Source of the DNA: an uncultured delta proteobacterium
GTDB lineage: Bacteria; Desulfobacterota; Desulfobacteria; Desulfobacterales; UBA2156
Assembly (NCBI GenBank): GCA_963698465.1
Contig: CAVOQY010000013.1
Location: forward strand, 420,559 to 484,558
Direction of reading: 5' to 3'
DNA: 64,000 bases
Below the pieces are notes generated by a model. The model made no database searches, had not been told where the DNA came from, and saw only the letters and a program-made list of their open reading frames with translations. The position numbers and the translations under genes are program-made. Below, piece by piece: positions 5,076 to 57,622 of the stretch (positions are counted from its first letter, which is position 1; every line of letters starts with the position of its first letter).

Positions 5076-5080
5076 AACCG

Positions 5081-7365: not shown

Positions 7366-7400
7366 GCTGAACGTTAAAGCCGAGGACAAGCAGACCGCGC

Positions 7401-7439: not shown

Positions 7440-7500
7440 CCCGGCAGACCCGGGGCAGCTTGATCATGCACATCTTAAGTCCATTAAAAGGAGGCCATCC

Positions 7501-36180: not shown

Positions 36181-36292
36181 TTAAGCCTTTTCCGCACCCG
36201 CAATTCAATAAACCGCCTTGAGTCTTGAACCCCAGGATCCAGAGCTGAAAAAAACCCACAAAAAGTTTTTCATCCGCGTTTTGGAGGATCGT

Positions 36293-36967: not shown

Positions 36968-36983
36968 AACCGATTCGGCTTCC

Positions 36984-37736: not shown

Positions 37737-37750
37737 GAAAAGCATCTTTC

Positions 37751-38425: not shown

Positions 38426-38625
38426 GACGGTATCCTCCGGCTCTTGTCGGCATCAAGGCTTTCAAACGACGATGTCAGACGGTTAAACTTTACTCGGAAA
38501 CAAGGACCGGCAATCCCCGGAAGCGGATGTTGAGGGTTTCCGGTGTGCCGGTAAGGAACACGGTCTGCAAAGAGGTAGAAAATCAGACAAGGGGCTGCGC
38601 GAAGTAAAATCGGATAAGGTCGGAA

Positions 38626-38642
38626 CTCCCGCGAAGCGGGAG
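38626..38642 (-). terminator. Intra-operon GC-rich stem-loop after the binding-protein gene
   Basis: CTCCCGC-GAA-GCGGGAG, 22 nt downstream of the SBP stop on the minus strand, inside a 238-nt gap before the permease gene. Confidence 0.4.
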
Positions 38643-38663
38643 CCCCGACCCTGACCTGCCCTC

Positions 38664-39425: not shown

Positions 39426-39541
39426 CTGTTCTCCTTTTTTGTTTTATCCGGTTGATAAAAGACAGCGCCTCACCTCCTGACCCGACGATTTTTTCCTTTT
39501 AAGTCCGGCCCGGCGGAAAGCGTCAGTTTCAGGTCCAGTTT

Positions 39542-39572
39542 TGGGAAGCTCCTGGAACTAAACCGCTTCCCA
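39542..39572. promoter_or_regulatory. Candidate operator in the divergent ABC/hutU control region
   Basis: Perfect 8-bp inverted repeat TGGGAAGC (39542-39549) / GCTTCCCA (39565-39572). A third GGAAGC lies just downstream (39586-39591). Confidence 0.3.
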
Positions 39573-39738
39573 GTGACACAAGTTGCGGAAGCTGTCAATG
39601 GCAATTGGCCGCCGGCTGAAAAACGTGCCTTGGCGCCTGCCCTGTTAGATGCTATGATAAATATCTCTGCCCTGCAATGCTCCGGGGCCGACGCCGGCTT
39701 TGGACTTCAAAGGGATCTACGGCAAGGAGGAATCCCCC

Positions 39739-41445
39739 ATGAGCGGCCTATTCAAGGAAGCGTTGATCCAAAAGCTTGAAATCGGCTCCGGCCGTCCGAG
39801 AAGCGTGAAGTCGCCGGTGGGAAACCTGCTGCACTGCAAAGGCTGGCAGCAGGAGGCGGCCCTTCGCATGCTGTGCAACAATCTCGACCCGGAATGCGGC
39901 GAGCAACCCATGGAGCTCATCGTCTACGGAGGCACCGGAAAAGCCGCCCGCAACTGGCCCTGTTTCGACGCCATCGTGTTGTCCCTTCTGGATCTCGAAA
40001 ACGACGAAACCCTGCTGGTCCAGTCCGGAAAACCGGTGGGAATCCTGAAAACCCACCCTTACGCCCCCAGGGTCCTCATCGCCAACGCGAACCTCGTCCC
40101 CCGATGGGCTACCTGGGAGCACTTCCACGAGCTGGATCGGAAAGGGCTCATCATGTACGGCCAGATGACTGCAGGTTCCTGGATCTACATCGGCACGCAG
40201 GGGATTCTCCAGGGGACCTACGAGACGTTTGCCGTTTTGTCTGAAAAGCATTTTGCCGGCCCTCTCTCCGGCCGTACGGTGGTCACCGCCGGCCTGGGCG
40301 GCATGGGCGGCGCCCAGCCCCTGGCCGTGACGCTCAACGGCGGTGTCGCTCTATGCGCGGAAGTGGATCGACTGCGCATCCAGAGGCGCCTGGATACCGG
40401 ATACCTGGATGCCATGACCGAAAACACCGACGATGCCATCGCCATGGCAAGGAAAGCCTCAAGGGAGAAAAAGCCGCTTTCCGTCGGAATCCTCGGGAAC
40501 GCCGCCGAAATTCTCCCGGACCTGATTCAGAAGGGATTCATCCCCGACGTGGTCACGGATCAGACCAGCGCCCATGACGAATTAAACGGCTATGTCCCTG
40601 CCAAGATTCCCTATGAAGACGCTCTCCGGCTGCGCAAAACGGATCCCAAGCGTTATATCGACATGGCCCTCGATTCAATGGCCGTGCACTGCCGTGCGAT
40701 ACTGGAGATGAAGCGGCAAGGCGCCGTGGCCTTTGACTACGGCAACGCCCTGCGCACCCAGGCCTTGAAACGGGGGGTTAAAGAAGCCATGAGCTACCCC
40801 GGGTTCGTCCCCGCCTATATCCGAGATCTTTTCTGCCGGGGCGAAGGGCCCTTCCGCTGGGCCGCTCTATCGGGAAACCCCAAAGACATCGAAACGACGG
40901 ACGAAGCGTTGATCCAGACTTTTCCCGATAAAAAGCGGATGGTACGCTGGCTCGAAACGGCCGGACGGAAAGTCACCCACATGGGGCTTCCGGCCCGCAT
41001 CTGCTGGCTGGGCTACGGGGAGCGGGACAAGGCTGGAAAACTCTTCAACGATCTGGTGGCGCACGGCCGCGTCTCGGCACCCCTGGTCATCGGGAGAGAT
41101 CACCTGGACTGCGGCTCCGTCGCGTCTCCGTACCGGGAAACGGAGGGGATGAAAGACGGCTCCGATGCGGTGGCGGACTGGGCCCTGCTCAACTGCATGG
41201 TCAACGTCGCCTCCGGAGCAAGCTGGGTCTCCTTCCATGACGGCGGCGGCGTCGGGATCGGCTACTCCCTTCATGCGGGACAGGTCACCGTGGTGGACGG
41301 TACGCCGGAAGCGGAGCTCAAAGCCACCACGGTCTTGAGAAACGATCCCGGGACGGGGATCCTGCGCCATGCGGACGCCGGATATGACCTTGCCCTGGAC
41401 ATGGCCCGATCCCGGGGGATCAAAATTCCTATGCCTGCAGGCTGA
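39739..41445 (+). CDS. hutU: Urocanate hydratase
   Basis: ORF opens at 39700; the ATG at 39739 follows an AAGGAGG RBS. Urocanase-typical sequence throughout ([54 protein letters not shown]). Confidence 0.95.
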
Positions 41446-43094: not shown

Positions 43095-44324
43095 ATGCAC
43101 TTAAAGTCGACCTTGTGGGTGAACCTCCATCTGGCCACCATGACCCGGGACCGCCCTTACGGGGCCATCGAAAACGGTGCCCTGGCTACTTCGGGCCCCA
43201 AGATCGCCTGGGTCGGCAGGGAAAGGGATCTTCCGCCCCCGCTGAGGGACCCCTCGCTGCCCGTGCACGACGGCAGGGGGGCATGGGTGACTCCAGGCCT
43301 CGTGGATTGCCATACCCATCTGGTGTATGCAGGCAACCGCGCCCGGGAGTTCGAACTCAGGCTCCAAGGCGCCTCCTATGAATCCATCGCGCGAAGCGGA
43401 GGCGGCATCCTTTCCACGGTCTTGGCCACCAGAGCCGCCGGGGAATCGGAGCTGTTTTGCCAAAGCGCGTCGCGCTTGAAATCCATGCTGGCCCAGGGCG
43501 TGACCACCGTCGAAATCAAGTCAGGGTATGGTCTCGACCTGGTTACCGAACTGAAGATGCTCCGCGTGGCGCGCCTCTTGGGGAAACGGTTCCCCGTCAC
43601 CGTGCTCCCCACGTTTCTGGGCGCCCACGCCGTCCCCCCCGAATTCAAAGGCGACGGCGACGCCTATATCGATTTCGTTTGCCGGGAAGTGCTTCCGGAA
43701 GCGGCGGATCAGGGCCTTGCCGTTGCCGCGGACGCCTTCTGTGAAGGCATCGGATTCACCCGGAACCAGACGGAAAAAGTGTTCCGGGCGGCCCGAAAAC
43801 ACGGCCTGGGGATCCATCTTCATGCGGAACAGTTTACGAACCAGGCCGGAGCCGAACTGGCCGCCCGCTTCAAGGCGCTTTCCGCCGGCCACCTGGAGCA
43901 TCTTTCGGCAAAAGGGGCCGAGGCAATGGGCCAAAGCGACACCGTGGCGGTTTTGCTTCCCGGAGCCTTTTACTTCCTCCGTGAAAAAAAGCTTCCTCCC
44001 GTCGACCTGCTCCGCCGGTACGCCGTCCCCATGGCGGTCTCCACGGACTGCAACCCCGGCTCCAGCCCTACGGTTTCCCTGCTTCTCATGCTCAACATGG
44101 CCTGTACCCTCTTCGGGTTGACCCCGGAGGAAGCCCTTTCGGGAACGACCCGAAACGCCGCCAAGGCGTTGGGCCTGGAAAAACGCCTGGGCACCCTGGA
44201 AGCCGGAAAGGATGCCGACTTCGTCCTGTGGGATGTCGCCTCGCCGGGGGAACTCGCCTATACTTTTGGAGCCAACCCCTGCCGAGGGGTCGTCCGGCAG
44301 GGGAAAAACGTCGGCTCCGGTTGA
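43095..44324 (+). CDS. hutI: Imidazolonepropionase
   Basis: Amidohydrolase fold with VDCHTHLVYAGNR, GGGILSTV, EIKSGYGL and DCNPGS. Confidence 0.9.
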   Translation: MHLKSTLWVNLHLATMTRDRPYGAIENGALATSGPKIAWVGRERDLPPPLRDPSLPVHDGRGAWVTPGLVDCHTHLVYAGNRAREFELRLQGASYESIARSGGGILSTVLATRAAGESELFCQSASRLKSMLAQGVTTVEIKSGYGLDLVTELKMLRVARLLGKRFPVTVLPTFLGAHAVPPEFKGDGDAYIDFVCREVLPEAADQGLAVAADAFCEGIGFTRNQTEKVFRAARKHGLGIHLHAEQFTNQAGAELAARFKALSAGHLEHLSAKGAEAMGQSDTVAVLLPGAFYFLREKKLPPVDLLRRYAVPMAVSTDCNPGSSPTVSLLLMLNMACTLFGLTPEEALSGTTRNAAKALGLEKRLGTLEAGKDADFVLWDVASPGELAYTFGANPCRGVVRQGKNVGSG

Positions 44325-44391: not shown

Positions 44392-44895
44392 ATGCGAGAA
44401 ACCAAGTCCCAGGAAATTTTAAAAAACGCGATCCTTCTGGAAAAACGGGGAAAGGCTTTTTACGAAAAAGTCGCCAAGCAGGCGTCGGACAAATCGACAA
44501 AGGCCTTTTTTCAGAAAATGGCGAAGGAGGAAAAATCCCACATCGAAATCTTGTCCGAGCAATTCAGGGCCTACCAGGGGAAAGGCAAATTCGACACCGG
44601 CTGTCTTGCCGGAAGGCCCTCGGCAAAAATCGCCTCCGCGGTCTTCACTCCGGCGCTGTCCCGGAAGATCGATGCCGCATCGTTTGAGGCGGCCGCCATT
44701 TCCGCGGCCATGGCCATGGAGGAAGCCGCCATTCGGCTTTACGCCGATCGCGCCAAGAAGGCCCGAGACCGCCACGAGAAGGCCCTGTACCGTTGGCTTG
44801 TCGAATGGGAAACCTCCCATCTCGAGATGCTCTCCAAAATCGATCAGGATCTCAAGGAGAGCATCTGGCACGACAACGCCTTCTGGCCGTTTTAA
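44392..44895 (+). CDS. Ferritin-like / rubrerythrin-family diiron protein (no rubredoxin domain)
   Basis: ATG at 44392 after an AAAGGAGG RBS (ORF opens at 44212). Paired E...ExxH-type helices (KMAKEEKSHIEIL, LVEWETSHLEML). Confidence 0.75.
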   Translation: MRETKSQEILKNAILLEKRGKAFYEKVAKQASDKSTKAFFQKMAKEEKSHIEILSEQFRAYQGKGKFDTGCLAGRPSAKIASAVFTPALSRKIDAASFEAAAISAAMAMEEAAIRLYADRAKKARDRHEKALYRWLVEWETSHLEMLSKIDQDLKESIWHDNAFWPF

Positions 44896-44991
44896 GGAAA
44901 GCTGTCACGGTTACCCCAAATCGGCGATCTTGAACTGGATGACCTGGAAAGAGGCCAAGGGCTGCCCGAACTGCCTGCGGCCCTTGGCGTG
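44539..44991. repeat. Direct repeat copy A (left flank of the accessory segment)
   Basis: Hand alignment. 44539-44920 matches 51951-52331 with 6 substitutions and 1 single-base indel. 44921-44991 matches 52602-52672 with 2 substitutions. Confidence 0.9.
44911..44991 (-). pseudogene. Acyl-CoA dehydrogenase remnant (internal fragment fused to the last codons and stop)
   Basis: The reverse translation HAKGRRQFGQPLASFQVIQFKIADLG* matches residues of the intact ACAD at 52322-53464. It lacks the 270 bp corresponding to 52332-52601. Confidence 0.75.
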
Positions 44992-45110
44992 AGAAATCTT
45001 TACGGGCCACTTTCCTGATTTCCGAAACAGCCTCTTTGAACCTTTGGCAAGGTAATGGAGACCCTTTTCAAGCAAAGGCGTGCCTTAAAAAGAGTGTTGT
45101 AAAGGTCCAT

Positions 45111-46256
45111 TTATCCAGAAAGCTCATCCCAACAAAGGTCATAGCTTGTGCTCCTACCACCGCCTGGATTGGGTCGAAGGATGCCCTTTTGAACAAGATC
45201 TGCCAGTTCTCTCTGAGCCGTTGCCCTGCTGACATGGGTCATGCCGGCATATTTTCGATTTGTCATACCCCCTTCAAAACCACCGGGACCAGCATCAAGC
45301 AAGCGGTTAAGAATTTTACTCTGACGCTCTTTAATGTTGACCTGTGCGTAGTGTTTCCAGAACCGAGGCTTTAACATTACATTGTCCAGGAGTTTGTTTG
45401 AGCTTAAAATAGCTCTGGACATAGACCCCAAAAACCATTCCATCCACGCGGTCAAATCGCCTTCACCTTTGTTGGTAAGCTCGAGGATCCCATAGTAGTT
45501 CTCTCGTTCTGCCATGATCTGTGAAGAGAGGCTATAGTACCTTGTTGACAGATTTTCATCCTGAGCAAGGGCCATCTCCGTTAATGCCCGGGCAACTCTT
45601 CCGTTTCCATCCTCAAAAGGATGCACCGCTACGAACCACAGATGGGCTATGCCAGCCCGAAGAAATCCGTCCAGTTCTTTAGGGCTTTTTTCCCACCAGG
45701 AAAAGAAACGGTCCATTTCTCTTTCCAAGCCTTCTGCCGGCGGCGCTTGGTAATGGATTATTTCCCGTCCAATAGGACCCGATACAACTTTCATCGGTCC
45801 ATTACGATCATCGCGCCAGGATGCGACTTTAATCTTGTGCATACCTGAATAACCTCCGGGGAACAGAGCGGCATGCCAGCCGAACAGCCTTTCAGGACTC
45901 AGCGCCTGCCTGAAGTTCTGCGTAGCATCCAGCAATATTTGAACGACCCCATCGGCCTGCTGATTTTTTTTCGAAACCATACCGGCTGTCGGCAGGCCAA
46001 GCCGTTGGGCCACTGAAGACCGAACTGCCTTGGGGTCCAGACGTTCACCTTCAATTTCACATGTTTTCAGGGCCTCTTCGATCAACACTTCGGCTCTTGC
46101 CTGCTGCTTGACGTCGAACCCCAGATCCTTCATTTGAGTCAACAAGGAACCTTGCTGGAATCGGCAAATACCTATTTGCTTGAGAAGAATTGCATTGTCC
46201 CAACGAAAATGAGGCCATGACGGCTGCTGCCAAATGTATTGCAATTTTCGAGTCAT
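45111..46256 (-). CDS. Fic-family protein (class II, with N-terminal inhibitory helix motif and C-terminal wHTH-like region)
   Basis: Fic active-site motif HPFEDGNGRVAR, and the inhibitory motif TCEIEG matching [ST]xxxE[GN]. GC content is lower than in the flanks. Confidence 0.9.
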   Translation of the reverse strand: MTRKLQYIWQQPSWPHFRWDNAILLKQIGICRFQQGSLLTQMKDLGFDVKQQARAEVLIEEALKTCEIEGERLDPKAVRSSVAQRLGLPTAGMVSKKNQQADGVVQILLDATQNFRQALSPERLFGWHAALFPGGYSGMHKIKVASWRDDRNGPMKVVSGPIGREIIHYQAPPAEGLEREMDRFFSWWEKSPKELDGFLRAGIAHLWFVAVHPFEDGNGRVARALTEMALAQDENLSTRYYSLSSQIMAERENYYGILELTNKGEGDLTAWMEWFLGSMSRAILSSNKLLDNVMLKPRFWKHYAQVNIKERQSKILNRLLDAGPGGFEGGMTNRKYAGMTHVSRATAQRELADLVQKGILRPNPGGGRSTSYDLCWDELSG

Positions 46257-46604
46257 TTCACACTTTTATTCGGCTCATTTTTTGAGGCGATAATAGACCA
46301 TAATTGACTCATTGGCAATGATTTTCTTAACGGTTATCCTCAGGTAAAAATATTCGAAAGTTACCCGGACACCTATGACCTTTAGTTCCTTCTGAAACTC
46401 TTGTTGGGCGATGATAGCCGAATTGCACCGCCGGTATCATGTCGAGGACGTTCCATCGAACAAACAAATTTTCGCTCTATCGGCCAAATTTTGGAATTCC
46501 GCCATCATGATATAGGGAACCTCTCGGTACCTTAACCCAACATATTGGTTCGGCACGGATATTGCTGTTGAAGTTCCTCCATCGGGAATCGAGGGGGAAT
46601 ATCC

Positions 46605-46775
46605 GTGCCCGCAGCCGTTTACCGTCCCCGAAAACCTCAGAACTCGCCGTATTACCAAAAAACCTGGTCGCGGCTGATCCAAAAGATCTGCGAAGTCGAT
46701 CCCTTAACCTGCCCCAAATGCCAGGGGAAAATGCGGGTGATCGCGTTTATTGAAGATCCGGAGGTGATCAAATGT
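46605..46775 (+). mobile_element. IS91-family transposase C-terminal remnant
   Basis: The translation ...TWSRLIQKICEVDPLTCPKCQGKMRVIAFIEDPEVIK resembles the conserved C-terminal zinc-ribbon tail of IS91-family transposases. No upstream catalytic part is present, and the surrounding DNA is AT-rich and non-coding. Confidence 0.55.
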
Positions 46776-47020
46776 GTATCGATTCATCCGAAGTGCACGG
46801 CAACGAAACGTTCCCATATCTTGGGGTGTAGACAGGGTCGGAACAGAATTCGTTTTCACACTCTATCCGCACCTAAAAAAGCGCTTTCTTATCATTTAGC
46901 ATCCGTTTCGAATCCGGCATTAATGGCGTGCCGGTTTTGTCCGGTCATTGAAGCACTTTGACTCACGCAACTTCCTCTACTTTCCTATATCGCGATTCAA
47001 TGATATATTATTGATAAAAA

Positions 47021-47539
47021 TCACTTCTTCCCTAAAATCTTATGGCGGTCGATGTGAAACAGGTTCAGTGAAAGGTCGGCGATTTCAGGTGCTTCGTTGA
47101 GCCAATGCCGTAAGTTTCCCAAAAGATTGGCGGCATAAGGATTCTGGCGGCCGTCGGCGAGCAGATAGTTGACCCACAACCCTTTTTTACGGGAAACCAC
47201 CAGGCCGGCTTCTTCCAGGATCTTCAAATGTTTGCTGGCGGTGGATTGCGCCGTTCCCAGGGCTGTATGAATCTCGCACACGCACATCTCCCGCTTTTCC
47301 AGCATCTTCAAGATCTTGACCCGGGTCGGATCGGACGCGGCCTTCATGACTTTTAAAAACAGTTTCACCCTAACCTCAATATCGTGTTTATGGAATATAT
47401 TAAACCGATCCGCCTTGTCAAGGTAAAATTTTTTCACAGCAGCCGGGGGCCCAATGCGAATGTTTTCTACCCAAGCCCAGCACCCTGCATTCTTTGATGA
47501 CGGCGATTCGGCATCCTGAAAGCCGTCGGCCTTGATCAT
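47021..47539 (-). CDS. ArsR/SmtB-family transcriptional regulator
   Basis: ASDPTRVKILKMLEKREMCVCEIHTALGTAQSTASKHLKILEEAGLV is a typical ArsR wHTH. The true start is uncertain; an internal ATG at 47347 would give 108 aa. Confidence 0.8.
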   Translation of the reverse strand: MIKADGFQDAESPSSKNAGCWAWVENIRIGPPAAVKKFYLDKADRFNIFHKHDIEVRVKLFLKVMKAASDPTRVKILKMLEKREMCVCEIHTALGTAQSTASKHLKILEEAGLVVSRKKGLWVNYLLADGRQNPYAANLLGNLRHWLNEAPEIADLSLNLFHIDRHKILGKK

Positions 47540-47621
47540 GATAGCGCCGGATTCGAACTTGCGGCTGACCCGGTTTGTGGGTTAGAAGAAAAGGAGATCA
47601 TCATTTGCCAGGGAGGGTGTT

Positions 47622-50081
47622 ATGCCCGATTCCAAAACCCGTATCGTTCGGACCACCACCTGGTCGCCCGGTCCCGGGTGCCATGGCGGCTGCGGGGTGC
47701 TGGCCCACGTCAAAGACGGAAAGCTCGTCAAGGTCGAGGGGGATCCCGATCATCCCTGGAACCGGGGCCGTCTGTGCGCCCGGGTCCTGGCCATGACCCA
47801 GTATGTCAACCACCCGGATCGACTCCGCCATCCCCTAAAGCGTATCGGAAAACGCGGGGAAGGGAAATGGGAGCGCATATCCTGGGAAGAAGCCCTCGAC
47901 TCCATCGAAAAAAAGATGAAGGCCATCCGGAAAAAGTTCGGGCCGGAAAGCATGGTCTTCAACGTGGGCACCGGAAGGGATATCTACCCCTGGGTCTGCA
48001 TGCTGGCCTATGCCTACGGAAGCCCCAACGTGATGTTCGGCCTTTCCGGACAGGCGTGCTACGGACCCCGCGTGTCCGCCGTGGTCACCGTGCAGGGGGA
48101 TTACGCGGTCTTCGATGCGGGCCAGTGGTTTCCCGCGCGCTATGAAGACCCCCGGCATCAAATCCCCGAATGCATGATCATCTGGGGTTACAACATCCAC
48201 GCCACGTGTCCGGACAACCTGTTCGGGCACTGGATCATCGACATGATGAAGCGCGGCACCCGCATCATCTGCATCGACCCCCGGCTCTCCTGGTTCGCCT
48301 CCCGCGCCAGGCACTGGCTGCGGCTTCGACCGGGAACCGATTCCGCACTGGTCATGGGATTTTTGAACGTGATCATCAAGGAAAACCGATACGATCAGCG
48401 ATTTCTCAAAAACTGGACCAACGCCGCCCACCTGGTTCGCACGGATACCGGAAAGCTTTTACGGGAAAGCGACCTTTTAAAAAGCGGGGCAAATATCCAT
48501 TTCGTCGCCTGGGATGCCAAAGCCCGAAAGCCTCTCATCTGGGACACCGCCCAAGTTGCATATCGTCAAAAGAACGCCAGACCCATGCTTTCCGGGTCCT
48601 GCGAAGTGAAACTGGCAAACGGAAAAACCGTCTCGTGCCATACGGCATGGGACGCCTTTTGCAGTCAAGTGGAAGCATATCCGTTGGACAAGGTTGAATC
48701 CATCACCGGCGTTCCAGCAGCCGATATCCGGGAAGCCGCACGTCTCTACGCCGATAGCAAACCGGCGGCCGTTCACTGGGGCGTCGCCGTGGACATGACG
48801 CCGGCGCTCACCCCGCTGGTCACGGGGATCACCGCACTGTGGGCGCTGACCGGGAACCTGGACGTTCCCGGGGGAAACGTGATCGCCCGATTCGCCTTCG
48901 ATGTCACCTCCTATGCCCTCCCCGGAACCAAAGGTCCCATCCGCCTAAAAAGCCCGGAACTCGACAAGCCCCGAATCGGCGCCGATCGATGCATGCCCCT
49001 CAACAAATTCTACTGGCGATGCCAGACCGACATGACCCTCGAGCAGATCTTTACGGAAAAGCCCTACCCCATCAAGGGAATGTGGATCCAGACCGCCGGT
49101 ATTTTGCAGGGGCTGGGCATGGATCCCAAACGCTGGCGCGAGGCATTGAAAAAACTCGATTTTATCGTGGCCGTCGACTTGTTTCATACTCCGACGACCC
49201 AGTACGCGGACGTGGTTCTCCCTGCCGCCAGCTTCCTGGAAAAAGACGGTTTCCGGAGCTGGTGGACCCCCCTTCAGAGCATCAACAGGGCCATAAAGGT
49301 CAAGGAATGCCGGCCCGATGTGGAAATCAATTTCGAGCTGGCAAAACGCTTCGACCCCGACTACAAATTCGAAACGATCTACGATCTTTTTGACGACATC
49401 CTCAAACCCGCGGGAATGACATTCGAAGAGCTCCAGGAGCAGGGTTGGGCATACCCTCCGGAAGGAAGCTCCAGCTGCCCTTACCTGCGACACGAAAAAG
49501 GGCTGCTTCGTCCGGATAAAAAGCCGGGATTCAGGACGCCCACCGGCCTGTTCGAGATTTACTCCACCCTCCGGGAGGAATGGGGGCTGGCGCCGGTTCC
49601 CCATCATGAGGAGCCCCCCTTTACTCCGGTGAGCCGACCGGATCTGGCCCGACAATATCCCTTGATCCTGTCGACAGGGAGACGCTCCCCCGCCTTTTTC
49701 CATTCCGAACATCGGAACATCCCCTGGCTGCGGGCATTGGATCCGGATCCCCTTGTGGAAATCCATCCCGATACCGCTCAAAACCACGGCATCGGCAACG
49801 GGGAGTGGGTGTGGGTGGAAAATTGGATGGGCCGGGTCAAGCTGAAGGCCAAAGTGACGCCGGTGGTGCCTCCATGGATGGTCATGGCCACCCACGGCTG
49901 GTGGTTCCCGGAAAAAGCCCCGGCCGAGCCTTCCCTTTTCGGCGTATGGGAGTCCAACATCAATCAATTGATTCCCATGGACCATCAGGGCAAGGACGGT
50001 CAGGGCGCCCCCATCAAACACAGCATGTGCAGAATTTACCGGGTCGGCGTGGAGGAAAAAAACGATGGCGAAAAAGCCTGA
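47622..50081 (+). CDS. Molybdopterin (Mo/W-bisPGD) oxidoreductase large subunit, cytoplasmic, substrate unknown
   Basis: 819 aa, GGGAGG RBS, no Tat signal. The N-terminal Cys pattern GCHGGCGV...C is atypical. Family body and C-terminal barrel are present (IHPDTAQNHGIGNGEWVWVEN). Confidence 0.85.
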   Translation: MPDSKTRIVRTTTWSPGPGCHGGCGVLAHVKDGKLVKVEGDPDHPWNRGRLCARVLAMTQYVNHPDRLRHPLKRIGKRGEGKWERISWEEALDSIEKKMKAIRKKFGPESMVFNVGTGRDIYPWVCMLAYAYGSPNVMFGLSGQACYGPRVSAVVTVQGDYAVFDAGQWFPARYEDPRHQIPECMIIWGYNIHATCPDNLFGHWIIDMMKRGTRIICIDPRLSWFASRARHWLRLRPGTDSALVMGFLNVIIKENRYDQRFLKNWTNAAHLVRTDTGKLLRESDLLKSGANIHFVAWDAKARKPLIWDTAQVAYRQKNARPMLSGSCEVKLANGKTVSCHTAWDAFCSQVEAYPLDKVESITGVPAADIREAARLYADSKPAAVHWGVAVDMTPALTPLVTGITALWALTGNLDVPGGNVIARFAFDVTSYALPGTKGPIRLKSPELDKPRIGADRCMPLNKFYWRCQTDMTLEQIFTEKPYPIKGMWIQTAGILQGLGMDPKRWREALKKLDFIVAVDLFHTPTTQYADVVLPAASFLEKDGFRSWWTPLQSINRAIKVKECRPDVEINFELAKRFDPDYKFETIYDLFDDILKPAGMTFEELQEQGWAYPPEGSSSCPYLRHEKGLLRPDKKPGFRTPTGLFEIYSTLREEWGLAPVPHHEEPPFTPVSRPDLARQYPLILSTGRRSPAFFHSEHRNIPWLRALDPDPLVEIHPDTAQNHGIGNGEWVWVENWMGRVKLKAKVTPVVPPWMVMATHGWWFPEKAPAEPSLFGVWESNINQLIPMDHQGKDGQGAPIKHSMCRIYRVGVEEKNDGEKA

Positions 50082-50406
50082 ATACGGCCTGTTGATCGAC
50101 TACGAATATTGCACGGGCTGCCTTGCCTGCCAGGTGGCCTGCACCCAGGAATATGGATGGGAGCCCGGCATGTCCGGCATGCGGGTCAACGAAATCGTCC
50201 AGCCCCTGCCACACAACAAGCACTATCTAACCTATCTGCCGTTTCCAACCGAGCTTTGCGTGCTGTGTCGTCCTCGGACCCGAAAAGGCCTTGAACCGGC
50301 CTGCGTCAAGCACTGCATGGCCGACGTCATCAAATGGGGACGCCTCGAGGACCTGTCCAGGGAACTGGGCACCAAGCCGCGGCTGGTCCTCTGGTCGCCC
50401 CGATAA
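50065..50406 (+). CDS. Small 4Fe-4S ferredoxin-like subunit (113 aa, 8 Cys)
   Basis: CTGCLACQVAC plus CVLC...CVKHC. GGAGG RBS and a 17-nt overlap with the large-subunit gene. Confidence 0.7.
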   Translation: MAKKPEYGLLIDYEYCTGCLACQVACTQEYGWEPGMSGMRVNEIVQPLPHNKHYLTYLPFPTELCVLCRPRTRKGLEPACVKHCMADVIKWGRLEDLSRELGTKPRLVLWSPR

Positions 50407-50429
50407 AGCGAAGCGACCTTAAGGGCCGG

Positions 50430-51611
50430 TCACTCGTTTAACAGGGTTCCGGGGAGGATGCTCTTATCCCCGAACTTTTCGTGCAGCGTGTCCAGGGTGA
50501 CATTCAACTTCTTTCTTTTTTCCAGGGTCTTGTCTATGGTGAAAAGGTCCAGCTGGATCCCGGTGGCAAGATGGCTGAGGTGGGACATCGACACGCCCAA
50601 CAACCGAACCGGCTTTTTGCCCAGTGCGGTTTTATTCGAGAGCCTGCAGACGATTTCGTAGAGGACACTGCCGTCATCCGTGGGATGCCCCAGAGTCTCG
50701 GACCGGGTGGCCATGACAAAGTCGGCATACTTGACCTTCAAGGTCACGGTCTTTCCTAAAACCCCGTATCTTCTTGCCCGCCGGGCGACCCGGTTTGAAA
50801 GCGACAGGAGTTCCCTCTTGGCGGTTTCAAGGTCTATGATGTCATGTTCGAAGGTCTCCTCGTGGCCGATGGATTTCATGTCATAATCGGCCACCACGTC
50901 CCGTTCATCCATGCCGGAGGCCAGCCGGTGCATCCGGGCGCCGTGTTTGCCGAATTTTCGCTCCAGAAATCCGACGGACGTGCGGCGCAAATCCGCAAAT
51001 GTCCGGATGCCGAGCTGTTTCAGGGCGGCCTGGGTCACCTTTCCCGCGCTCCACATTTTGTCGATGGGAAGGGGATCCAGGAAGGCCTGCTCTTCCCCGG
51101 GCGCCACCACGGTCAGCCCGTCGGGCTTATCCATGTCCGAGGCGATCTTCGCCACGAACTTGGAAGCCGCCGCACCGGCGGAAACCGTCAGCCCGCATTC
51201 GCTGACGATCGCCTTTTTTATTTTTTGGGCGATTTCCGTCGGCACCCCGAAAAGCCGCACCGAGGCGGTGACATCCAAAAACGCCTCGTCGATGGAGAGG
51301 GGCTCCACCAGGGGAGTGAATCGATAAAAAACCTCGAATATCCGGTTCGATACTTCCTTGTACCGCTGCATCCTCACCGGCAGCACCACGGCTTCGGGGC
51401 AAAGGCGCATCGCCGTTACCATGGGCTGGGCCGAGTGCACGCCGAACTTCCGCGCTTCATAGGATGCCGAGGAAACCACACCCCGCTTCCGGCTCCCGCC
51501 CACGATGACCGGCTTCCCCTTCAAGGCCGGGTCGTCCAACACCTCAACAGCCGGATAGAAGGCGTCCATATCCAGGTGAAGGATGCTTTTATAAAGGTTT
51601 GGATGTTCCAC
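50430..51611 (-). CDS. dinB: DNA polymerase IV (Y-family)
   Basis: LHLDMDAFYPAVE, KPVIVGG and SIDEAFLDVT motifs; 393 aa. Confidence 0.9.
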   Translation of the reverse strand: MEHPNLYKSILHLDMDAFYPAVEVLDDPALKGKPVIVGGSRKRGVVSSASYEARKFGVHSAQPMVTAMRLCPEAVVLPVRMQRYKEVSNRIFEVFYRFTPLVEPLSIDEAFLDVTASVRLFGVPTEIAQKIKKAIVSECGLTVSAGAAASKFVAKIASDMDKPDGLTVVAPGEEQAFLDPLPIDKMWSAGKVTQAALKQLGIRTFADLRRTSVGFLERKFGKHGARMHRLASGMDERDVVADYDMKSIGHEETFEHDIIDLETAKRELLSLSNRVARRARRYGVLGKTVTLKVKYADFVMATRSETLGHPTDDGSVLYEIVCRLSNKTALGKKPVRLLGVSMSHLSHLATGIQLDLFTIDKTLEKRKKLNVTLDTLHEKFGDKSILPGTLLNE

Positions 51612-51666
51612 CAGACAAATAGCAAGGAACGGTCAGGATTTCTGCAAAACGATTAGGCTGAACCCA

Positions 51667-51950
51667 TCAAGCGGGCGGCATGACCTGGGCTTCCCCTGAA
51701 AATACAATCTTCTGATCCTGATTGACGAAGACGGTTTCCATACGAACCCGATTCTTCTCTTTGAAGACTTCCAAGACTTTCAGTGTCAACGTGAGGGTAT
51801 CTCCGATAAAAACCGGGCGGAGAAACTTCATGGTCTGGGAGAGATAGATGGTTCCTTCTCCCGGAAATTGCATTCCGATCACCCCGGAGAGAATTCCTGC
51901 TGAAAGCATCCCATGGGCGACACGCTGCTTGAACAGGCTGTTTTTCGCAT
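51667..51950 (-). pseudogene. MaoC-like (R)-hydratase hot-dog domain gene, 5'-truncated at the repeat junction
   Basis: The in-frame translation DAKNSLFKQRVAHGMLSAGILSG...TLTLKVLE... covers only the C-terminal ~94 aa. The reading frame runs into repeat copy B at 51951. Confidence 0.7.
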
Positions 51951-52672
51951 CACATCGAAATTTTGTCCGAGCAATTCAGGGCCTACCAGGGGAAAGGCAA
52001 ATTCGACGCCGGCTGTCTTGCCGGAAGGCCCTCGGCAAAAATCGCCTCCGCGGTCTTCACTCCGGCGCTGTCCCGGAAGATCGATGCCGCGTCGTTTGAG
52101 GCGGCCGCCATTTCCGCGGCCATGGCCATGGAGGAAGCCGCCATCCGGCTTTACGCCGATCGCGCCAAGAAGACCCGAGACCGCCACGAGAAGGCCCTGT
52201 ACCGTTGGCTTGTCGAATGGGAAACCTCCCATCTCGAGATGCTCTCCAAAATCGATCAGGATCTCAAGGAGAGCATCTGGCACGACAACGCCTTCTGGCC
52301 GTTTTAGGAAAGCTGTCGCGGTTACCCCAAAAGGGACCTGGCGACGATCACTTTCTCCATTTCCCGGGTACCTTCGTATATCTCCAGGATCTTGGCGTCC
52401 CGGTACAGGCGCTGGACCTTGTACTCGTCGATATAGCCGTACCCGCCGTGCATCTGAAGGGCCTCGTCGGCGCACCGGACCGCCATCCGCGCACTGTACC
52501 ACTTGGCCATGGCCACCAGGGCATGATCGATCTTTCCCCGGTCGGCCTTCCAGGCCGCTTCGTAATAAAGGTTCCGGGCCGCCCGGATCCACGTGGCCAT
52601 TTCGGCGATCTTGAACTGGATGGCCTGGAAAGAGGCCAAGGGCTGTCCGAACTGCCTGCGGCCCTTGGCGTG
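51951..52672. repeat. Direct repeat copy B (right flank of the accessory segment; contains 270 bp absent from copy A)
   Basis: See copy A. Copy B begins abruptly at 51951 and is continuous with the intact acyl-CoA dehydrogenase gene. Confidence 0.9.
51963..52307 (+). pseudogene. 5'-truncated duplicate of the ferritin-like gene (last 114 codons)
   Basis: The translation differs from the C-terminal part of the 44392-44895 product at two residues (T/A, A/T). Only a TTG start is available and there is no RBS. Confidence 0.8.
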
Positions 52673-53464
52673 TCGGATGGACTCTTCGAGGGCGGCTCTT
52701 GCGAGTCCCACGGCCTGGGCGCAGATGTGCAGGCGCGTCCGGTTGAAAAAAGCCATGAGCTGATGAAATCCATCTCCCCGCTTTCCCACCAGGTTTTCAG
52801 AAGGCACCCGGACCCCCTTGAGGACGACTTCGGCCGTGTCCGAGGCCCGGATCCCCAACTTGCCTCGGATCTTGACGGCCTTGAAACCCGGCGCATCGGT
52901 TTGAACGAGGAAAAAGCTGTGCCGGTGGTGGCGAGAGGGGTTTTCCGGGTCGGTCAGGCAAAAAACCAGCAGGTGCCGGGCCAGGGTTCCGTTGGTAATG
53001 AACATCTTGGAACCATCGATGACCCACTGGTCGCCGTCCTCTACGGCGGAGGTGACAGCGGAACTGACGTCGCTTCCCGCATCCGGCTCCGTGATGGCGG
53101 TCCCAATGATGGCTTCCCCGGAAACGAGCCCGGGAAGGACCGTTTCCTTTTGTTTTTCGGTGCCGTAGAGAAGGAGCAGTTCGGAACCGAAAGTCGCCGA
53201 CAAGATGGCGGCTCCGATCCCCGGATCCGCGGCCCAGAACTCTTCGGCGATGAGACAGTGCTCAAAAAACCCGTATCCAGCCCCGCCGTATTTCTCATCG
53301 ATGTAGACGCCCACGAATCCTAAATCGCAGGCCTTTTTCCAAATCGACAAGTCAAACCGTTCCTCCCTGTCAAACACCGGGGCCATTTCCGTGAATTCCT
53401 TGACGGCGAACTCCCGGGCCGCTTTTTGAATCTCCTTCTGTTCACGTGTCAATTCAAAATCCAT
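52322..53464 (-). CDS. Acyl-CoA dehydrogenase
   Basis: 380 aa with the typical ACAD sequence (ITEPDAGSD, FITNG, QIHGGYGY-like MHGGYGYIDEY, YEGT). Confidence 0.9.
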   Translation of the reverse strand: MDFELTREQKEIQKAAREFAVKEFTEMAPVFDREERFDLSIWKKACDLGFVGVYIDEKYGGAGYGFFEHCLIAEEFWAADPGIGAAILSATFGSELLLLYGTEKQKETVLPGLVSGEAIIGTAITEPDAGSDVSSAVTSAVEDGDQWVIDGSKMFITNGTLARHLLVFCLTDPENPSRHHRHSFFLVQTDAPGFKAVKIRGKLGIRASDTAEVVLKGVRVPSENLVGKRGDGFHQLMAFFNRTRLHICAQAVGLARAALEESIRHAKGRRQFGQPLASFQAIQFKIAEMATWIRAARNLYYEAAWKADRGKIDHALVAMAKWYSARMAVRCADEALQMHGGYGYIDEYKVQRLYRDAKILEIYEGTREMEKVIVARSLLG

Positions 53465-55107
53465 CAGATCGCACTCCTTCTTTTTTCCTCGCTGCGGATT
53501 TCCCGTCGGAGCAGTTTCCCGACTTTCGATTTCGGGAGCATGTCTCTGAATTCGATGTAGTGCGGCACCTTATAAGAAACCAGGCTTTTCCTGCACCACT
53601 TGATGAGATCCTGTCCGGTGATTCCTTTGACGTCTTCTTTGAGCACCACGTAGGCCTTGATCCTCTCCCCCACCCGCTCGTCGGGGACGCCTACCACGCA
53701 GGAAGCCATCACCGCCGAATGCTCCTGCAGGGTGGTCTCGATTTCCGAGGCCGATACACGGTAGCCCTTGTGTTTGATGGTGTCGACGGTGCGGTCCACG
53801 AAGTAAAGGTATCCCTTTTCGTCCATGGACATGATGTCTGCGGTACGGTACCACATTTTTCCGTCTTTCTCGACAAACGCAGAGGCGGTTTCTTCGGGTT
53901 TGTTGAGGTAGGCCTTCACCATGTGCTCCGAAGAAACCCAGAGCTCTCCGGGCGCTCCGACTGCCACCGGGTCCAAAGTGGAAGGTTCCACGATGCAAAT
54001 CGTCTTGCTGGGTACCACCCGCCCCACGCTTTTTGGGGGGTTCTCGCGGTCTGTCGGACACATGGCCACCCCCCCGCAGGTCTCCGTGGCGCCGTAACCC
54101 TGGTGGATGACCCGGTTGAATCGCTCTTTCCATCGTTTTCCGATCTCCACGGGCAGGACATCCCCCCCGCTGAAGCAGTAGTCGATGGAACTCAAGTCGT
54201 ATTGATCGAGCCGGGGATGCTCCAGGATCATCCGGTAGAGCATGGGGACCCCGATCATGCTTTTCGCCTTGAACCTTTCGATGGCATCGAAAGCCGCATC
54301 CAGGTTGACCCGGGGCTGGATGATGAGGGTGCCTCCAAACAGAAGGGTGGACAAACTGCAGGTCTGGCCAAGGATGTGAAACAGGGGGGCGTTTCCCATG
54401 ATCACATTGTCTTTTGCCGGAAACATCGCATCGCTGATATGGATCTGCTCCTCGGCGGACGTTAAAAAAAGCGCGTGGGACAAGGGAACGCCTTTGGGAA
54501 ACTTGGTGGTTCCGCCGGTGTAAAGGATCTCCGCGGTTTGGGTCCCGCCCCTGCCGGGATCCGGCAGGGCAGACAAATCGGACAAACCCTGCGACAGCAG
54601 TTTCCGAAGAAAATGGACGGAGTTGAGCCTTTGGACCCTGCCCCTGGGCACTACGTCAAAGAGAAAGCCGAAGGCGCGCTTCCAGGCGGGCAACAGGTCC
54701 GCGAGGTTGGACACGATGACCGACCGAATGGCGGTTTCCGGAAGGACCTGCATCACATACCCGAAATTGGTGTCCATGCAGACGATGCACTCGGCGCCGC
54801 TGTCGTTGGCGATGTATTTCAGGTCGTGAGGCGTGTAGATGGGCGTTATGGGGACGGGGACGGCACCGAGGCGCTGAATGCCCAGCCACGACACCACCCA
54901 CTGGATGCTGTTGGGAAGATAAAGCACCACCTTGCATCCCGGCCCGACCCCGAGACGGGAAAGGGCAGAGGCAAACCGTGTCGCAAGCTCGATGACCCGG
55001 CCGTAGGAAAAGGAAGTCCCCAGATAGATGACTGCGGTCTTTTCGGTCCGCTTCGCGGCGGCGGCAAAGAAAACCGAAGCGATACTGTTAGGGTTTGAAC
55101 CGGTCAT
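53464..55107 (-). CDS. AMP-dependent acyl-CoA synthetase/ligase
   Basis: AMP-binding motifs ILYTGGTTKFPKGV, QGYGATE, YRTADI and PKSKVGKLLRRE. Confidence 0.9.
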   Translation of the reverse strand: MTGSNPNSIASVFFAAAAKRTEKTAVIYLGTSFSYGRVIELATRFASALSRLGVGPGCKVVLYLPNSIQWVVSWLGIQRLGAVPVPITPIYTPHDLKYIANDSGAECIVCMDTNFGYVMQVLPETAIRSVIVSNLADLLPAWKRAFGFLFDVVPRGRVQRLNSVHFLRKLLSQGLSDLSALPDPGRGGTQTAEILYTGGTTKFPKGVPLSHALFLTSAEEQIHISDAMFPAKDNVIMGNAPLFHILGQTCSLSTLLFGGTLIIQPRVNLDAAFDAIERFKAKSMIGVPMLYRMILEHPRLDQYDLSSIDYCFSGGDVLPVEIGKRWKERFNRVIHQGYGATETCGGVAMCPTDRENPPKSVGRVVPSKTICIVEPSTLDPVAVGAPGELWVSSEHMVKAYLNKPEETASAFVEKDGKMWYRTADIMSMDEKGYLYFVDRTVDTIKHKGYRVSASEIETTLQEHSAVMASCVVGVPDERVGERIKAYVVLKEDVKGITGQDLIKWCRKSLVSYKVPHYIEFRDMLPKSKVGKLLRREIRSEEKRRSAI

Positions 55108-55116: not shown

Positions 55117-55875
55117 CTAAAGGCCGAAATAAGCCGACTTGATTTCCGGGTTATCCATGAGTTGCTGCCCGGTTCCCTGAAGGGTCAGCATCCCGTTTTC
55201 CACCACGTATCCCCGGTCGATCACCGGGAGCACGGGTCGCGCGAACTGTTCGCTGAGTAGCACACTGATGCCGGTGTCCTCCTTCAACTTCACGACGGCG
55301 TCCACCAGGGTCCGCTGCATCAAGGGGCTCAACCCCAAGAGGGGTTCGTCCAACAACAGAAGTCTCGGCCCCACGACGAGGGCCATCCCGATGGCGAGCA
55401 TCTGCTGCTCCCCCCCGCTCAAAAAGCCCGCCTTCCGGTGCCTGAGGTCCGACAGGGGTGGAAAAAGGGCATAGGCCCTTTCAACCCCCTGGGCGATCTG
55501 GGACCGGGAGCGCAGGTAGCCGGCGATCTTCAGATTTTCCAGGACGCTGCTTTCCGGAAAAACCGGGTGCCGCTCCCGGGAAAGAACGATACCCTTTCGG
55601 ACACGCCGGCTCGGGGGTGTCTCGGTGATGTCTTCTCCGTCGAAAAAAATCTTTCCGTAAAGCGTGATGCGCTCCCCTCCCCGGCGCTTCTCCTTGACGC
55701 GCATGTGGATGATCAATCCGGACAGGGCGTTCATCAACGTCGTCTTCCCCGCGCTGTTGGACCCGATGACCCCCACCCGCTCTCCTTCGTTCACATGCAG
55801 GCTGAGATCGTTGATGGCCAAGGCGTTTTCGAAAAAGACCATCAGGTTTTTCACTTCCAGCAACATGGAGGTCAT
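55117..55875 (-). CDS. livF: Branched-chain amino acid-type ABC transporter ATP-binding protein
   Basis: GSNSAGKTT, LSGGEQQMLAIGMAL, LLLDEP. Operon position after livG. Confidence 0.8.
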   Translation of the reverse strand: MTSMLLEVKNLMVFFENALAINDLSLHVNEGERVGVIGSNSAGKTTLMNALSGLIIHMRVKEKRRGGERITLYGKIFFDGEDITETPPSRRVRKGIVLSRERHPVFPESSVLENLKIAGYLRSRSQIAQGVERAYALFPPLSDLRHRKAGFLSGGEQQMLAIGMALVVGPRLLLLDEPLLGLSPLMQRTLVDAVVKLKEDTGISVLLSEQFARPVLPVIDRGYVVENGMLTLQGTGQQLMDNPEIKSAYFGL

Positions 55876-56621
55876 TCCGCTCCCAGGTAGGCTTTTTTCA
55901 CTTCCGCACTTTCCATCACCTCGGAGGCGTTCCCTTCGGCGATCTTGTGCCCGTAATTGAGAACGAGGACCCGGTCGGCGATGCGGAAAAGCTCTTTCAG
56001 CCGATGCTCGATCATGATGATCGTCTTTCCTTGATGGCGAAGCTTTTCAATGACGGGGACGATCCCCGCCACCTCGGCGAGGCTGAGTCCCGAAAAGAGC
56101 TCGTCCAAGATCATCAGTTCCGGATTCAGGGCGATGGATTTGGCCAGTTCGAGGCGCTTAAGGTATCCCTGGGGGAGCGCTCCGGCACTTTTGTAGGCCA
56201 CCATGGAATCCCGTTCGAAGCCGACTTCTTCCAAAAGGTCCAGGGCCACGGCATCCCTGTCCCCGTACTTCCCTCCCAGCATTCCTTTGACCCGGGGGGA
56301 ATACAAGGGGATGATCATGTTCTTGAACGCCGGCAACTGGTAGAACGGTTTGACCATTTGAAAGGTCCGGCTGATGCCCAGCCGGACGATCCGGTGAACG
56401 GACATGCCGGTGATGTCTTTGCCCTTAAAGGAGATTTCCCCCTCGGTGGGCTTCACGAAACCGGTGATCAGGTTCACGGCCGTCGTTTTTCCGGACCCGT
56501 TGGGGCCGATGAGGCCCAAAAGCTCCCCCCGGTCCAGGGAGAAGCTCAAATCGCTGATGGCCTGGACCCCGCCGAAGTTTTTGTAGAGCCCCGAGACCTT
56601 GAGAATAGGCTCCGAGCCCAT
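55872..56621 (-). CDS. livG: Branched-chain amino acid-type ABC transporter ATP-binding protein
   Basis: ORF opens at 56786. The ATG at 56621 (MGSEPILKVSGLYKNFGG) overlaps the livM stop by 1 nt. GPNGSGKTT and the LivG-type insert are present. Confidence 0.8.
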   Translation of the reverse strand: MGSEPILKVSGLYKNFGGVQAISDLSFSLDRGELLGLIGPNGSGKTTAVNLITGFVKPTEGEISFKGKDITGMSVHRIVRLGISRTFQMVKPFYQLPAFKNMIIPLYSPRVKGMLGGKYGDRDAVALDLLEEVGFERDSMVAYKSAGALPQGYLKRLELAKSIALNPELMILDELFSGLSLAEVAGIVPVIEKLRHQGKTIIMIEHRLKELFRIADRVLVLNYGHKIAEGNASEVMESAEVKKAYLGAE

Positions 56622-57622
56622 CACTCGACCTCCACCCATCGCTCGAACTGGTGGTATTTTCGCTGGATGTAATGAAAGAGCCCTTCCGGAAGCCCGACGA
56701 TGAAGACCACCAGAAACAGCCCGTACAAAACGATGCGCAGCCCCCCGATGCCCCTGAGGATCTCCGAGAGCGGCACGAGAATGCATGCCCCCAGGGTGGC
56801 ACCGGCCAGGGTTCCGGGTCCTCCCACCACCGCGGCGGCGATGGGCAGAATCGAATAATCCAGGGCGAATACGGGCATTCCCACGAACATGTACACATGG
56901 GTCATGAACGCGCCCGAAAAGGCGCCGATGCTGCTTGCAATAAAAAGCGCCTGGGCCTTGAAGCCATAGATGTTGATCCCGGCGTTCATGACGGAACGGT
57001 CATTGTCGGCGATCCCCTTGAGGACCAGTCCGTAATCGGAATCCATCATCCGCCTAAACCCGAAAAGCGCCCCCAAAAGGACGAAAGCCACCAGATAAAT
57101 CTCCATCCAGCCCGACGCCAGGGGCTCGATGCCGCTGAGACCCTCGGTGCCGCCGAAAACCTTGGTGGCTTCCACGATGCGTACCAGCATCAGGGGGATG
57201 ATCAGCGTGACCATGGAGAAGTAGACCCCCCGGAGCCTGAGAACCGGCAGGAGAAAAACGGTGCAGGCGAGCCCGCCGATCCCCGTGGCCGCCGGAATGG
57301 CGATCAAAGGGTGCCACTCGAAATAGTGGTTCAGGATACCGGAAGCATACGCGCCGGTACCGAAAAACAGGGCCTGGCCCAGGGAGATCATCCCGGCCTG
57401 GGCGAGGATGTCCCAGCTGATGGCCAAAAGCGCAAAAACGGCCACCGACAAGAAGACCTTCTGCCAGTAGGCATTGAAAAACAGAGGCAAAAACAAGAAA
57501 AGCAAAACCGGAAACAGGCGGGGCGCGGAGAGATAAAGCATTTCGCGCCAGGAAGTCACGGCGAAAACATCGTTCGCCCGGACCTTGATCCCCCGGTCCA
57601 GCCGTTCTTTACGCTTGGGCAA
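56621..57622 (-). CDS. livM: Branched-chain amino acid-type ABC transporter permease
   Basis: 333-aa polytopic LivM-like permease. Confidence 0.8.
   Translation of the reverse strand: MPKRKERLDRGIKVRANDVFAVTSWREMLYLSAPRLFPVLLFLFLPLFFNAYWQKVFLSVAVFALLAISWDILAQAGMISLGQALFFGTGAYASGILNHYFEWHPLIAIPAATGIGGLACTVFLLPVLRLRGVYFSMVTLIIPLMLVRIVEATKVFGGTEGLSGIEPLASGWMEIYLVAFVLLGALFGFRRMMDSDYGLVLKGIADNDRSVMNAGINIYGFKAQALFIASSIGAFSGAFMTHVYMFVGMPVFALDYSILPIAAAVVGGPGTLAGATLGACILVPLSEILRGIGGLRIVLYGLFLVVFIVGLPEGLFHYIQRKYHQFERWVEVE

Follow-up and report, generated by a model that had tools for sequence, protein, structure and literature searches.

A mosaic 7-kb insert between direct repeats of host DNA at an rbr/acyl-CoA dehydrogenase junction in an uncultured Desulfobacterales-type bacterium: a possible case of integrase-free insertion by homologous recombination

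Introduction

When a suicide plasmid enters a chromosome by a single (Campbell-type) crossover, a contiguous segment of the target is turned into direct repeats that bracket the inserted DNA; intact genes are kept if the homologous patch is internal to genes or at their ends, and the insertion can be reverted via the repeats. In the complex class 1 integrons that contain ISCR1, aberrant rolling-circle replication yields a circle that homologous recombination inserts, and the 3' conserved segment (3'-CS) is partly duplicated in the process (PMC7707992; PMC3575428); the combination of circle and homologous recombination is the accepted model for these integrons (PMC7707992). Members of the IS91 family form circular intermediates and co-mobilize adjacent DNA when termination at terIS fails (PMC13181058). 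The present analysis concerns a segment of 6,959 bp (44992-51950, hereafter the insert) that lies between direct repeats of host DNA, at the junction of a rubrerythrin gene (rbr) and an acyl-CoA dehydrogenase gene (ACAD), in a 64-kb stretch of contig CAVOQY010000013.1 from an uncultured, sulfate-reducer-type bacterium of Desulfobacterales type (this whole stretch is called the window, and all coordinates without another label refer to it).

The locus shares several traits with the ISCR1 integrons. A resident sequence is partly duplicated around the insert in both cases (the 3'-CS in the integrons, following the Toleman model, and rbr/ACAD here), and the layout is the same, with a repeat, a transposase gene pointing right (a relic here), captured chromosomal genes and a repeat again. 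The mechanism proposed for the integrons, the insertion of an integrase-free circle by homologous recombination, is also alike. The two differ, however, in that the transposase in the window is a relic of ~45-57 residues without oriIS or terIS, so that a rolling-circle origin is not demonstrable here; in that the host is an environmental one and the cargo is not antibiotic resistance; and in that the repeats, ~100% identical in the integrons, are 98% identical here, one of them with a 270-bp deletion. Likewise, suicide-plasmid insertion differs from the locus, where the event would be natural, no vector or replicon functions are present and the inserted DNA is a mosaic of chromosomal fragments. 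One-ended transposition of IS91-family elements (IS91, IS801, IS1294) has in common with the locus a family relic within the insert, but it makes no target duplication, and the GTTC/CTTG target and the oriIS that it needs are found neither at the junctions nor at the relic.

The locus is best read not as a mobile element of a new kind but as an ordinary scar, left where homologous recombination inserted DNA without an integrase, and because both the signature and the mechanism are textbook, it opens no new question. If the reading developed below is true, the locus would be a natural case of gene movement and insertion without an integrase or an active transposase, in which a normally well-anchored dinB-arsR pair moved and a short captured patch was joined to the chromosome by host homologous recombination.

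Duplicated Host DNA and Its Junctions

Comparison of the whole window with itself by blastn gave two matches and nothing else, which makes this pair the sole repeat in the window. Positions 44539-44920 match 51951-52331 over 382 columns at 98.17% identity, with 6 mismatches and one 1-bp gap, and positions 44921-44991 match 52602-52672 over 71 bp at 97.18% identity, with 2 mismatches. A sequence-only reading of the window that preceded this analysis, and that had proposed such a self-comparison, had given exactly these coordinates and mismatch counts; a repeat search and a MAFFT alignment arrived at the same coordinates. The length of the repeats excludes chance identity, and the observation is therefore confirmed. 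Base-by-base inspection places the junctions at 44991/44992 and 51950/51951 and, together with Pfam searches, bears out the earlier description of both copies: the left one runs leftward into a complete ferritin-like gene and ends abruptly at 44991, and the right one starts abruptly at 51951, where it abuts a 5'-truncated MaoC gene, and continues into a complete ACAD gene.

Both copies map to one contiguous target stretch of 722 bp. The left copy holds the 3' two-thirds of the complete rbr gene, the ACAD stop codon with the last 2 codons (44911-44920) and, directly joined to these, ACAD codons 265-288 (44921-44991). The right copy holds an rbr 3' fragment, readable as an open reading frame (ORF) of 114 amino acids (aa) at 51963-52307, and the last 116 codons and the stop of the intact ACAD gene. 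The 270 bp at 52332-52601, which encode ACAD codons 289-378 (90 codons), are present in the right copy and missing from the left, and it is for this reason that the left copy measures 453 bp. Annotators should be warned that neither the 114-aa ORF nor the pieces of ACAD at 44911-44991 are genes; both are debris of the duplication. The sole 1-bp indel between the copies falls in the rbr stop codon (44895 versus 52306), where TTTTAAGG gives TAA in the left copy and TTTTAGG gives TAG in the right; both copies end at the same residue.

A repeat pair of this sort could also be an assembly artefact, in which two strains of ~98% identity, or two loci sharing a 7-kb segment, were merged by the assembler into a single path; the two junctions would in that case belong to different DNA molecules. 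The contig does come from an uncultured organism, neither junction is covered by an independent contig, and an identity of 98% between copies is a typical between-strain value. Look-ups of the exact ACAD and rbr proteins gave no record, and that of the ABC ATPase gave only a 3-kb Logan contig. An artefact is nonetheless improbable: the junctions join unrelated sequences that share no k-mer, and assemblers do not invent such joins; two rearranged genomes sharing the 7 kb, each without an intact rbr or ACAD, would have had to coexist; and the contig is 556 kb long, so that single reads, if the assembly is a long-read one, would span 453-bp repeats that lie 7 kb apart. The 'contig_NNNNN' names of the assemblies behind three of the relatives used below (L098, L102 and L111) are taken by us to suggest long-read assembly.

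Uninterrupted Arrangement in Relatives

Whether rbr and ACAD adjoin each other in related genomes, a comparison proposed in the sequence-only reading, could be answered from two relatives: in L002 they are direct neighbours, convergent with a 10-bp gap, and in L001 they are convergent with one extra gene of 152 aa between them. In a scan with one genome per species, the ACAD protein was 88% identical in L001 and 83% in L002 at the aa level, and the order ABC-ABC-ligase-ACAD is kept in both and in many other loci. Full-length rbr orthologues occur in L001, L002, L081 and L082; in the last two, which are metagenome contigs, the synteny FTCD_C (cyclodeaminase)-hutI-rbr is kept at 71-77% aa identity and the gene downstream of rbr differs from that in the window. 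This view of the empty site rests on species-level relatives of 62-88% aa identity rather than on sister strains; near-identical strains were not met in the genome and metagenome contig scans, the best values being 88% aa identity for ACAD and 77% for rbr.

On these arrangements, the simplest ancestor would have had hutI and rbr facing ACAD and the ligase gene, in the order hutI, rbr, ACAD, ligase. Starting from it, the present structure may be described as the insertion of the 6,959 bp at the rbr/ACAD junction, with duplication of 722 bp of the target. One intact gene is left on each side, rbr on the left and ACAD on the right, and as a result no gene is inactivated.

The site downstream of rbr varies among the relatives: it is occupied by ACAD in L002, by the extra gene (11200-11658) in L001, and by another AMP-ligase gene (6981-8432) in L081. 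The rbr/ACAD junction may be a recurrently rearranged site, and it is flagged here as a variable spot in this group. The product of the extra gene in L001 presumably resembles YjbQ/UPF0047.

Proposed Insertion by a Single Crossover

The structure would be accounted for by Campbell-type insertion-duplication, in which circular DNA that bears a patch of the target undergoes one homologous crossover with the chromosome; this is the reading that we favour, with a confidence that is about evenly balanced. Earlier illegitimate joins would have assembled a patchwork circle from the foreign Fic gene, an IS91/ISCR scrap, a dinB-arsR-arsP piece and a Mo-oxidoreductase block; the circle, which would have been non-replicating and no defined mobile element, would further have carried the 3' part of rbr, the spacer and the 3' part of ACAD. 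Its size would equal the insert plus one patch, which comes to 7,412 bp if the patch had the deletion and to 7,681 bp if it had not. One crossover at the rbr/ACAD junction, performed by host homologous recombination, would then have inserted the 6,959 bp and left the patch on both sides. In keeping with such a course, the insert taken together with one repeat forms a simple circular permutation in which only two junctions are non-homologous. Campbell-type insertion had already been put forward from the sequence, and the duplication of one contiguous piece of target on which that proposal leaned holds, although other mechanisms give the same end product.

With outgroups, 4 of the 8 substitutions between the copies could be polarized, and all of them are derived in the non-functional copies (3 in the right rbr fragment and 1 in the left ACAD fragment). 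Such changes are predicted both by decay after the event and by divergence of the patch while it was still on the circle, and the polarization therefore does not discriminate between the two; in the second version, the crossover would lie between 44761 and 44942. The divergence of 1.8% between the copies, the 270-bp deletion (if it followed the event) and the eroded transposase gene suggest that the event is old. The deletion could equally have predated integration, having been present in the patch.

Several points weigh against insertion of a circle. A locus piece of 453-722 bp would first have had to be captured onto it, via two illegitimate joins; the searches revealed neither a circle nor a donor nor a sister strain in which the patch is single, and in ACAD and rbr the best relatives are only 72-88% identical at the aa level; the transposase relic comes without oriIS, terIS or an adjacent GTTC/CTTG site; the polarized substitutions fit a pre-diverged patch and post-event decay alike; and the structure is known from a single contig of 555,893 bp from an uncultured organism. 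It is because the relic is too small, and too devoid of ends, to be tied to the event, and because the joins of the patch are unexplained, that our confidence in the circle stays near the midpoint.

An identical end product, with two abrupt junctions and a target duplication, would be left by a template switch of the type of microhomology-mediated break-induced replication (MMBIR) or fork stalling and template switching (FoSTeS), or by illegitimate end-joining at a staggered or two-sister break. A fork or broken end would leave ACAD at 52672, copy or join ~7 kb from elsewhere and re-enter rbr 722 bp upstream, in one step and without a circle or a homologous crossover. Prior capture of a homology patch would not be needed, and the insert's several other illegitimate junctions argue that joins of this kind were repeated in the region. 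We nevertheless regard such a route as rather unlikely. Convincing microhomology is seen neither at the junctions, as judged against relatives of 80-83% identity, nor at the deletion; the mosaic in its entirety must already have existed as one continuous stretch elsewhere; and a copy-type mechanism leads one to expect a retained source copy, whereas DinB and Fic from the source contig form single-member protein clusters on one contig, which is a weak argument against the presence of the insert in a second, diverged copy.

Integrase, tRNA Genes and Element Ends

The sequence-only reading had found neither an integrase nor an att-type tRNA, and wider searches agree with it. ARAGORN detected no tRNA or tmRNA gene in the 64-kb window, no Rfam family was found in 43-54 kb, and Pfam and NCBIfam searches of the insert ORFs and of the flanking genes (~27.7-64 kb) detected no integrase, tyrosine or serine recombinase or intact transposase. 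The flanks so scanned hold histidine-utilization genes on the left (urocanase at 39700-41445, formiminotransferase, cyclodeaminase and hutI) and acyl-CoA and ABC-transport genes on the right. No pair of terminal inverted repeats has its arms at the two ends of the insert, and short att repeats were not met at these ends, where the repeats are hundreds of base pairs of coding DNA.

These results bear on the idea that a genomic island, prophage or composite transposon was inserted by site-specific recombination or transposition, with the repeats as att sites or target-site duplications. That the insert is flanked by direct repeats and is partly atypical in G+C (GC) content would agree with it. 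Coding repeats of 453 and 722 bp, however, far exceed att cores or target-site duplications; the genes and ends that such an element should bring were absent from the scans just described; no plasmid or phage record matches; and elements of the IS91 family make no target duplication (PMC13181058). This explanation is essentially refuted, and we give it next to no credence.

Mosaic Composition of the Insert

The 7-kb insert is not a coherent element but a mosaic, made up of five blocks or more, in which five genes are truncated or displaced (Table 1). Its earlier description as a single accessory segment has to be given up, as it includes native chromosomal DNA; the cargo genes listed with that description were all recovered, except that the IS91 remnant amounts to only the C-terminal ~45-57 residues of a transposase. 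Illegitimate junctions inside the insert are located at ~44992, 46896, 47448 and 50444, and no plasmid or phage record matched the whole 8.1-kb unit.

The lower GC content noted earlier is real, but the hand count of 37-45% made the dip too deep and too narrow. Over 45300-46300 the GC content is 48.6%; the segments between 44992 and 47447 have 42-51%, and the lowest value, in a single 200-bp interval, is 38%, compared with 58-61% in the flanks; the genes for the molybdopterin oxidoreductase (MoOx), the 4Fe-4S protein (Fer4) and DinB are host-like at 58-60%. A second, milder dip (52-54% compared with ~58-60%) is seen at 36000-40000, over genes for ABC-transporter ATPases and solute-binding proteins that lie immediately upstream of the histidine-utilization cluster.

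Table 1. Features of the insert, its repeats and the adjoining genes, in order of position in the window.
Feature	Coordinates	Strand	Size or extent	Remarks
hutI, imidazolonepropionase-like amidohydrolase	43095..44324	+		Left flank; last gene of the histidine-utilization cluster; Pfam
rbr, rubrerythrin/ferritin-like gene	44392..44895	+	167 aa, complete	Pfam Rubrerythrin, E = 1.8e-14
Left direct repeat	44539..44991		453 bp	rbr 3' part, 15-bp spacer, ACAD pieces
5' fragment of a hypothetical gene of 406 aa	44997..45114	-	~aa 6-45	Cut by the left junction of the insert
Fic family gene (DUF4172-Fic-wHTH)	45111..46256	-	381 aa	Pfam; 49.5% GC
IS91/ISCR-family HUH transposase relic	46620..46790	+	C-terminal ~45-57 residues	NCBIfam, tblastx
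arsP-type permease gene	46897..46968	-	First 24 codons	Homology ends at ~46896
ArsR/SmtB regulator	47021..47539	-	172-aa ORF	Pfam HTH_5
Molybdopterin (DMSO-reductase family) oxidoreductase	47622-50081	+	819 aa	Pfam, NCBIfam; Mo/W bis-PGD
4Fe-4S protein (mini-ferredoxin)	50065-50406	+	113 aa	Pfam, NCBIfam
dinB, DNA polymerase IV	50430..51611	-		Pfam IMS, IMS_C; 58% GC
MaoC-like dehydratase relic	51667..51950	-	5'-truncated	Pfam MaoC_dehydratas, E = 1.9e-5
Right direct repeat	51951..52672		722 bp, continuous, undeleted	rbr 3' fragment, spacer, ACAD 3' end
ACAD, acyl-CoA dehydrogenase	52322..53464	-	380 aa, complete	Pfam
AMP-dependent ligase	53464..55107	-		Right flank; Pfam
Two ABC ATPase genes	55117-56786			Beyond the AMP-ligase gene; Pfam

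About 2.1 kb of the insert (the arsP'-arsR and dinB-MaoC' parts) is, on the evidence of its 81-83% nucleotide (nt) identity to L098 and L105-L110 and of the gene order there, part of a chromosomal locus that is conserved in the lineage and from which it has been displaced. In these relatives, a gene of 161/167 aa is followed by dinB, arsR, arsP and thioredoxin genes. The dinB gene of the insert, with a GC content at third codon positions (GC3) of 0.75, is host-like in composition and 81-83% nt identical to theirs, and arsR reaches 82-83% nt and 89.6% aa identity. The conserved part of arsR with its native upstream region spans 47011-47447, and since conservation stops at 47447, the 172-aa ArsR ORF is probably over-extended at its 5' end. 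In the relatives, arsR is followed by arsP, of which the insert keeps the first codons; their translation, VSQSASMTGQNRHAINAGFETDAK, matches MSNTVSIAENNRSAVDVESTPDAK of L098, and the DNA alignment agrees.

The distance between dinB and arsR is ~120-130 bp in L098 and L105-L110, and the block of ~3.0 kb that separates them in the window (47448-50444) is found, in the comparison with these loci, in this genome only. It carries the MoOx and Fer4 genes (59-60% GC), a homologous pair of which occurs in L031 at 73% nt identity. No direct repeats longer than 6 nt surround the block, only one 6-mer being present, and it looks like a separate, earlier illegitimate insertion or, conversely, a sequence lost in the relatives. 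The block takes the place of the last 5 dinB codons and of ~57 bp of spacer.

The adjoining mosaic block, 50445-51950, consists of dinB and the 5'-truncated MaoC gene, whose C-terminal ~94 aa are intact and whose cut end coincides exactly with the right junction. In L098, an internal stretch of this MaoC gene, 134 bp long, survives as a relic upstream of dinB (9633-9794, compared with 51800-51950 of the window) and begins right after the stop of the 167-aa gene, ~10 nt beyond the cut seen in the window; L105 is without any MaoC relic. The truncation of MaoC may predate the insertion event, because L098 keeps this shorter relic starting ~10 nt beyond the window's junction.

The displaced dinB-arsR piece also bears on a two-step alternative, in which a large tandem duplication came first and a deletion later. 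The duplication, reaching from 44539 to a distant MaoC gene, would have created the junction at 51950/51951, and a deletion from ACAD 52672 to the gene beside Fic that at 44991/44992. Tandem duplication with later remodelling is common in bacteria, each step would need one novel junction only, and 1.8% divergence leaves time for two steps. The native place of the insert, however, would have had to be over 11 kb rightward of ACAD, with two copies present, and no second copy is present in the 11.3 kb on that side; each of DinB and Fic forms a single-member cluster in the source assembly; and homologues of ACAD, rbr and hutI are not within 8-10 kb of dinB-arsR in relatives, as they gave no hits in L098 and none is called beside dinB in L098 or L105-L110. 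This sequence of events strikes us as very unlikely.

At the left end of the insert, the mosaic continues with DNA that is probably of other provenance. The conserved Fic block (45115-46331, including 75 bp upstream of the gene) is 84-87% nt identical to L102 (7926-9139), L103 (267-1483) and L104 (2494-3704), which have 45-48% GC and flanks unrelated to the window. Because the 49.5% GC of Fic matches the 45-48% of these relatives' genomes, compared with 58% for the window, the gene was probably acquired horizontally from a lower-GC relative. Next to it, 44997-45114 is 80.5% identical over 118 bp to L103 1637-1754 (blastn), within the gene at L103 1621-2841, the 406-aa gene that comes after Fic in L103. 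Plasmid-borne Fic homologues reach ~50% aa identity. Many relatives at 85-89% aa identity were also seen, mostly on very short contigs, and in L102 and L103 Fic is located near amidase-tig-clpP-clpX, with variable genes between.

Transposase Relic

The relic aligns to positions 433-488 of 509 of the NCBIfam profile ISCR_clade_Ia (E = 6e-6), and in tblastx it resembles the IS91-like element of L111 over 46656-46787 only. It represents ~130-170 bp from the 3' part of the gene and is truncated at either side; no intact gene for an HUH (Y2) transposase is present in the insert, where the profile is matched at the positions just given only. To the right of the relic there follow ~120 bp and then the 5' end of arsP.

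Two candidates suggested in this region were set aside. The ORF at 46605-46961 is not a fusion of an N-terminus and a C-terminus, as expected of a deletion derivative resembling a MITE (a miniature transposable element with inverted repeats), since NCBIfam aligns one contiguous C-terminal stretch, and the oriIS-like motif at 46972-46996, ACTTCCTCTACTTTCCTATA, is the conserved arsR-arsP intergenic region and arsP start.

Capture by IS91-type rolling-circle transposition, as suggested in the sequence-only reading, is an analogy and not something read from the sequence, because the relic is a small internal gene fragment (~130-170 bp) without oriIS or terIS; the link between IS91 and the event is weak. 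It is doubtful to us that aberrant rolling-circle replication of an IS91/ISCR element made a circle with dinB, arsR, the Mo-oxidoreductase operon and the patch, which homologous recombination then rescued. If true, such ISCR1-type capture would amount to an integrase-free route by which housekeeping genes are relocated in uncultured anaerobes, and to an environmental, non-clinical counterpart of the integrons.

The database relatives of the relic, 39 in number, are all short ORFs of 44-130 aa, and the 12 that were retrieved are C-terminal fragments, with no full-length transposase among the matches; the list came from a word-based search with a 74-aa query, which may have biased it. In L111, the IS91-like gene (2769-5363) is split by an insertion of the IS110 family (Transposase_20). 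In these lineages, the subfamily to which the relic belongs may persist largely in the form of such remnants.

Other Observations in the Window

Farther to the left, the window encodes at 28696-30477 a protein of 593 aa that is not a canonical replicative DnaB. It scores 95 bits against TIGR00665, for which the cut-off is 385; its N-terminal ~330 aa are without a match, and its DnaB_C/AAA_25 domain is confined to the C-terminal half.

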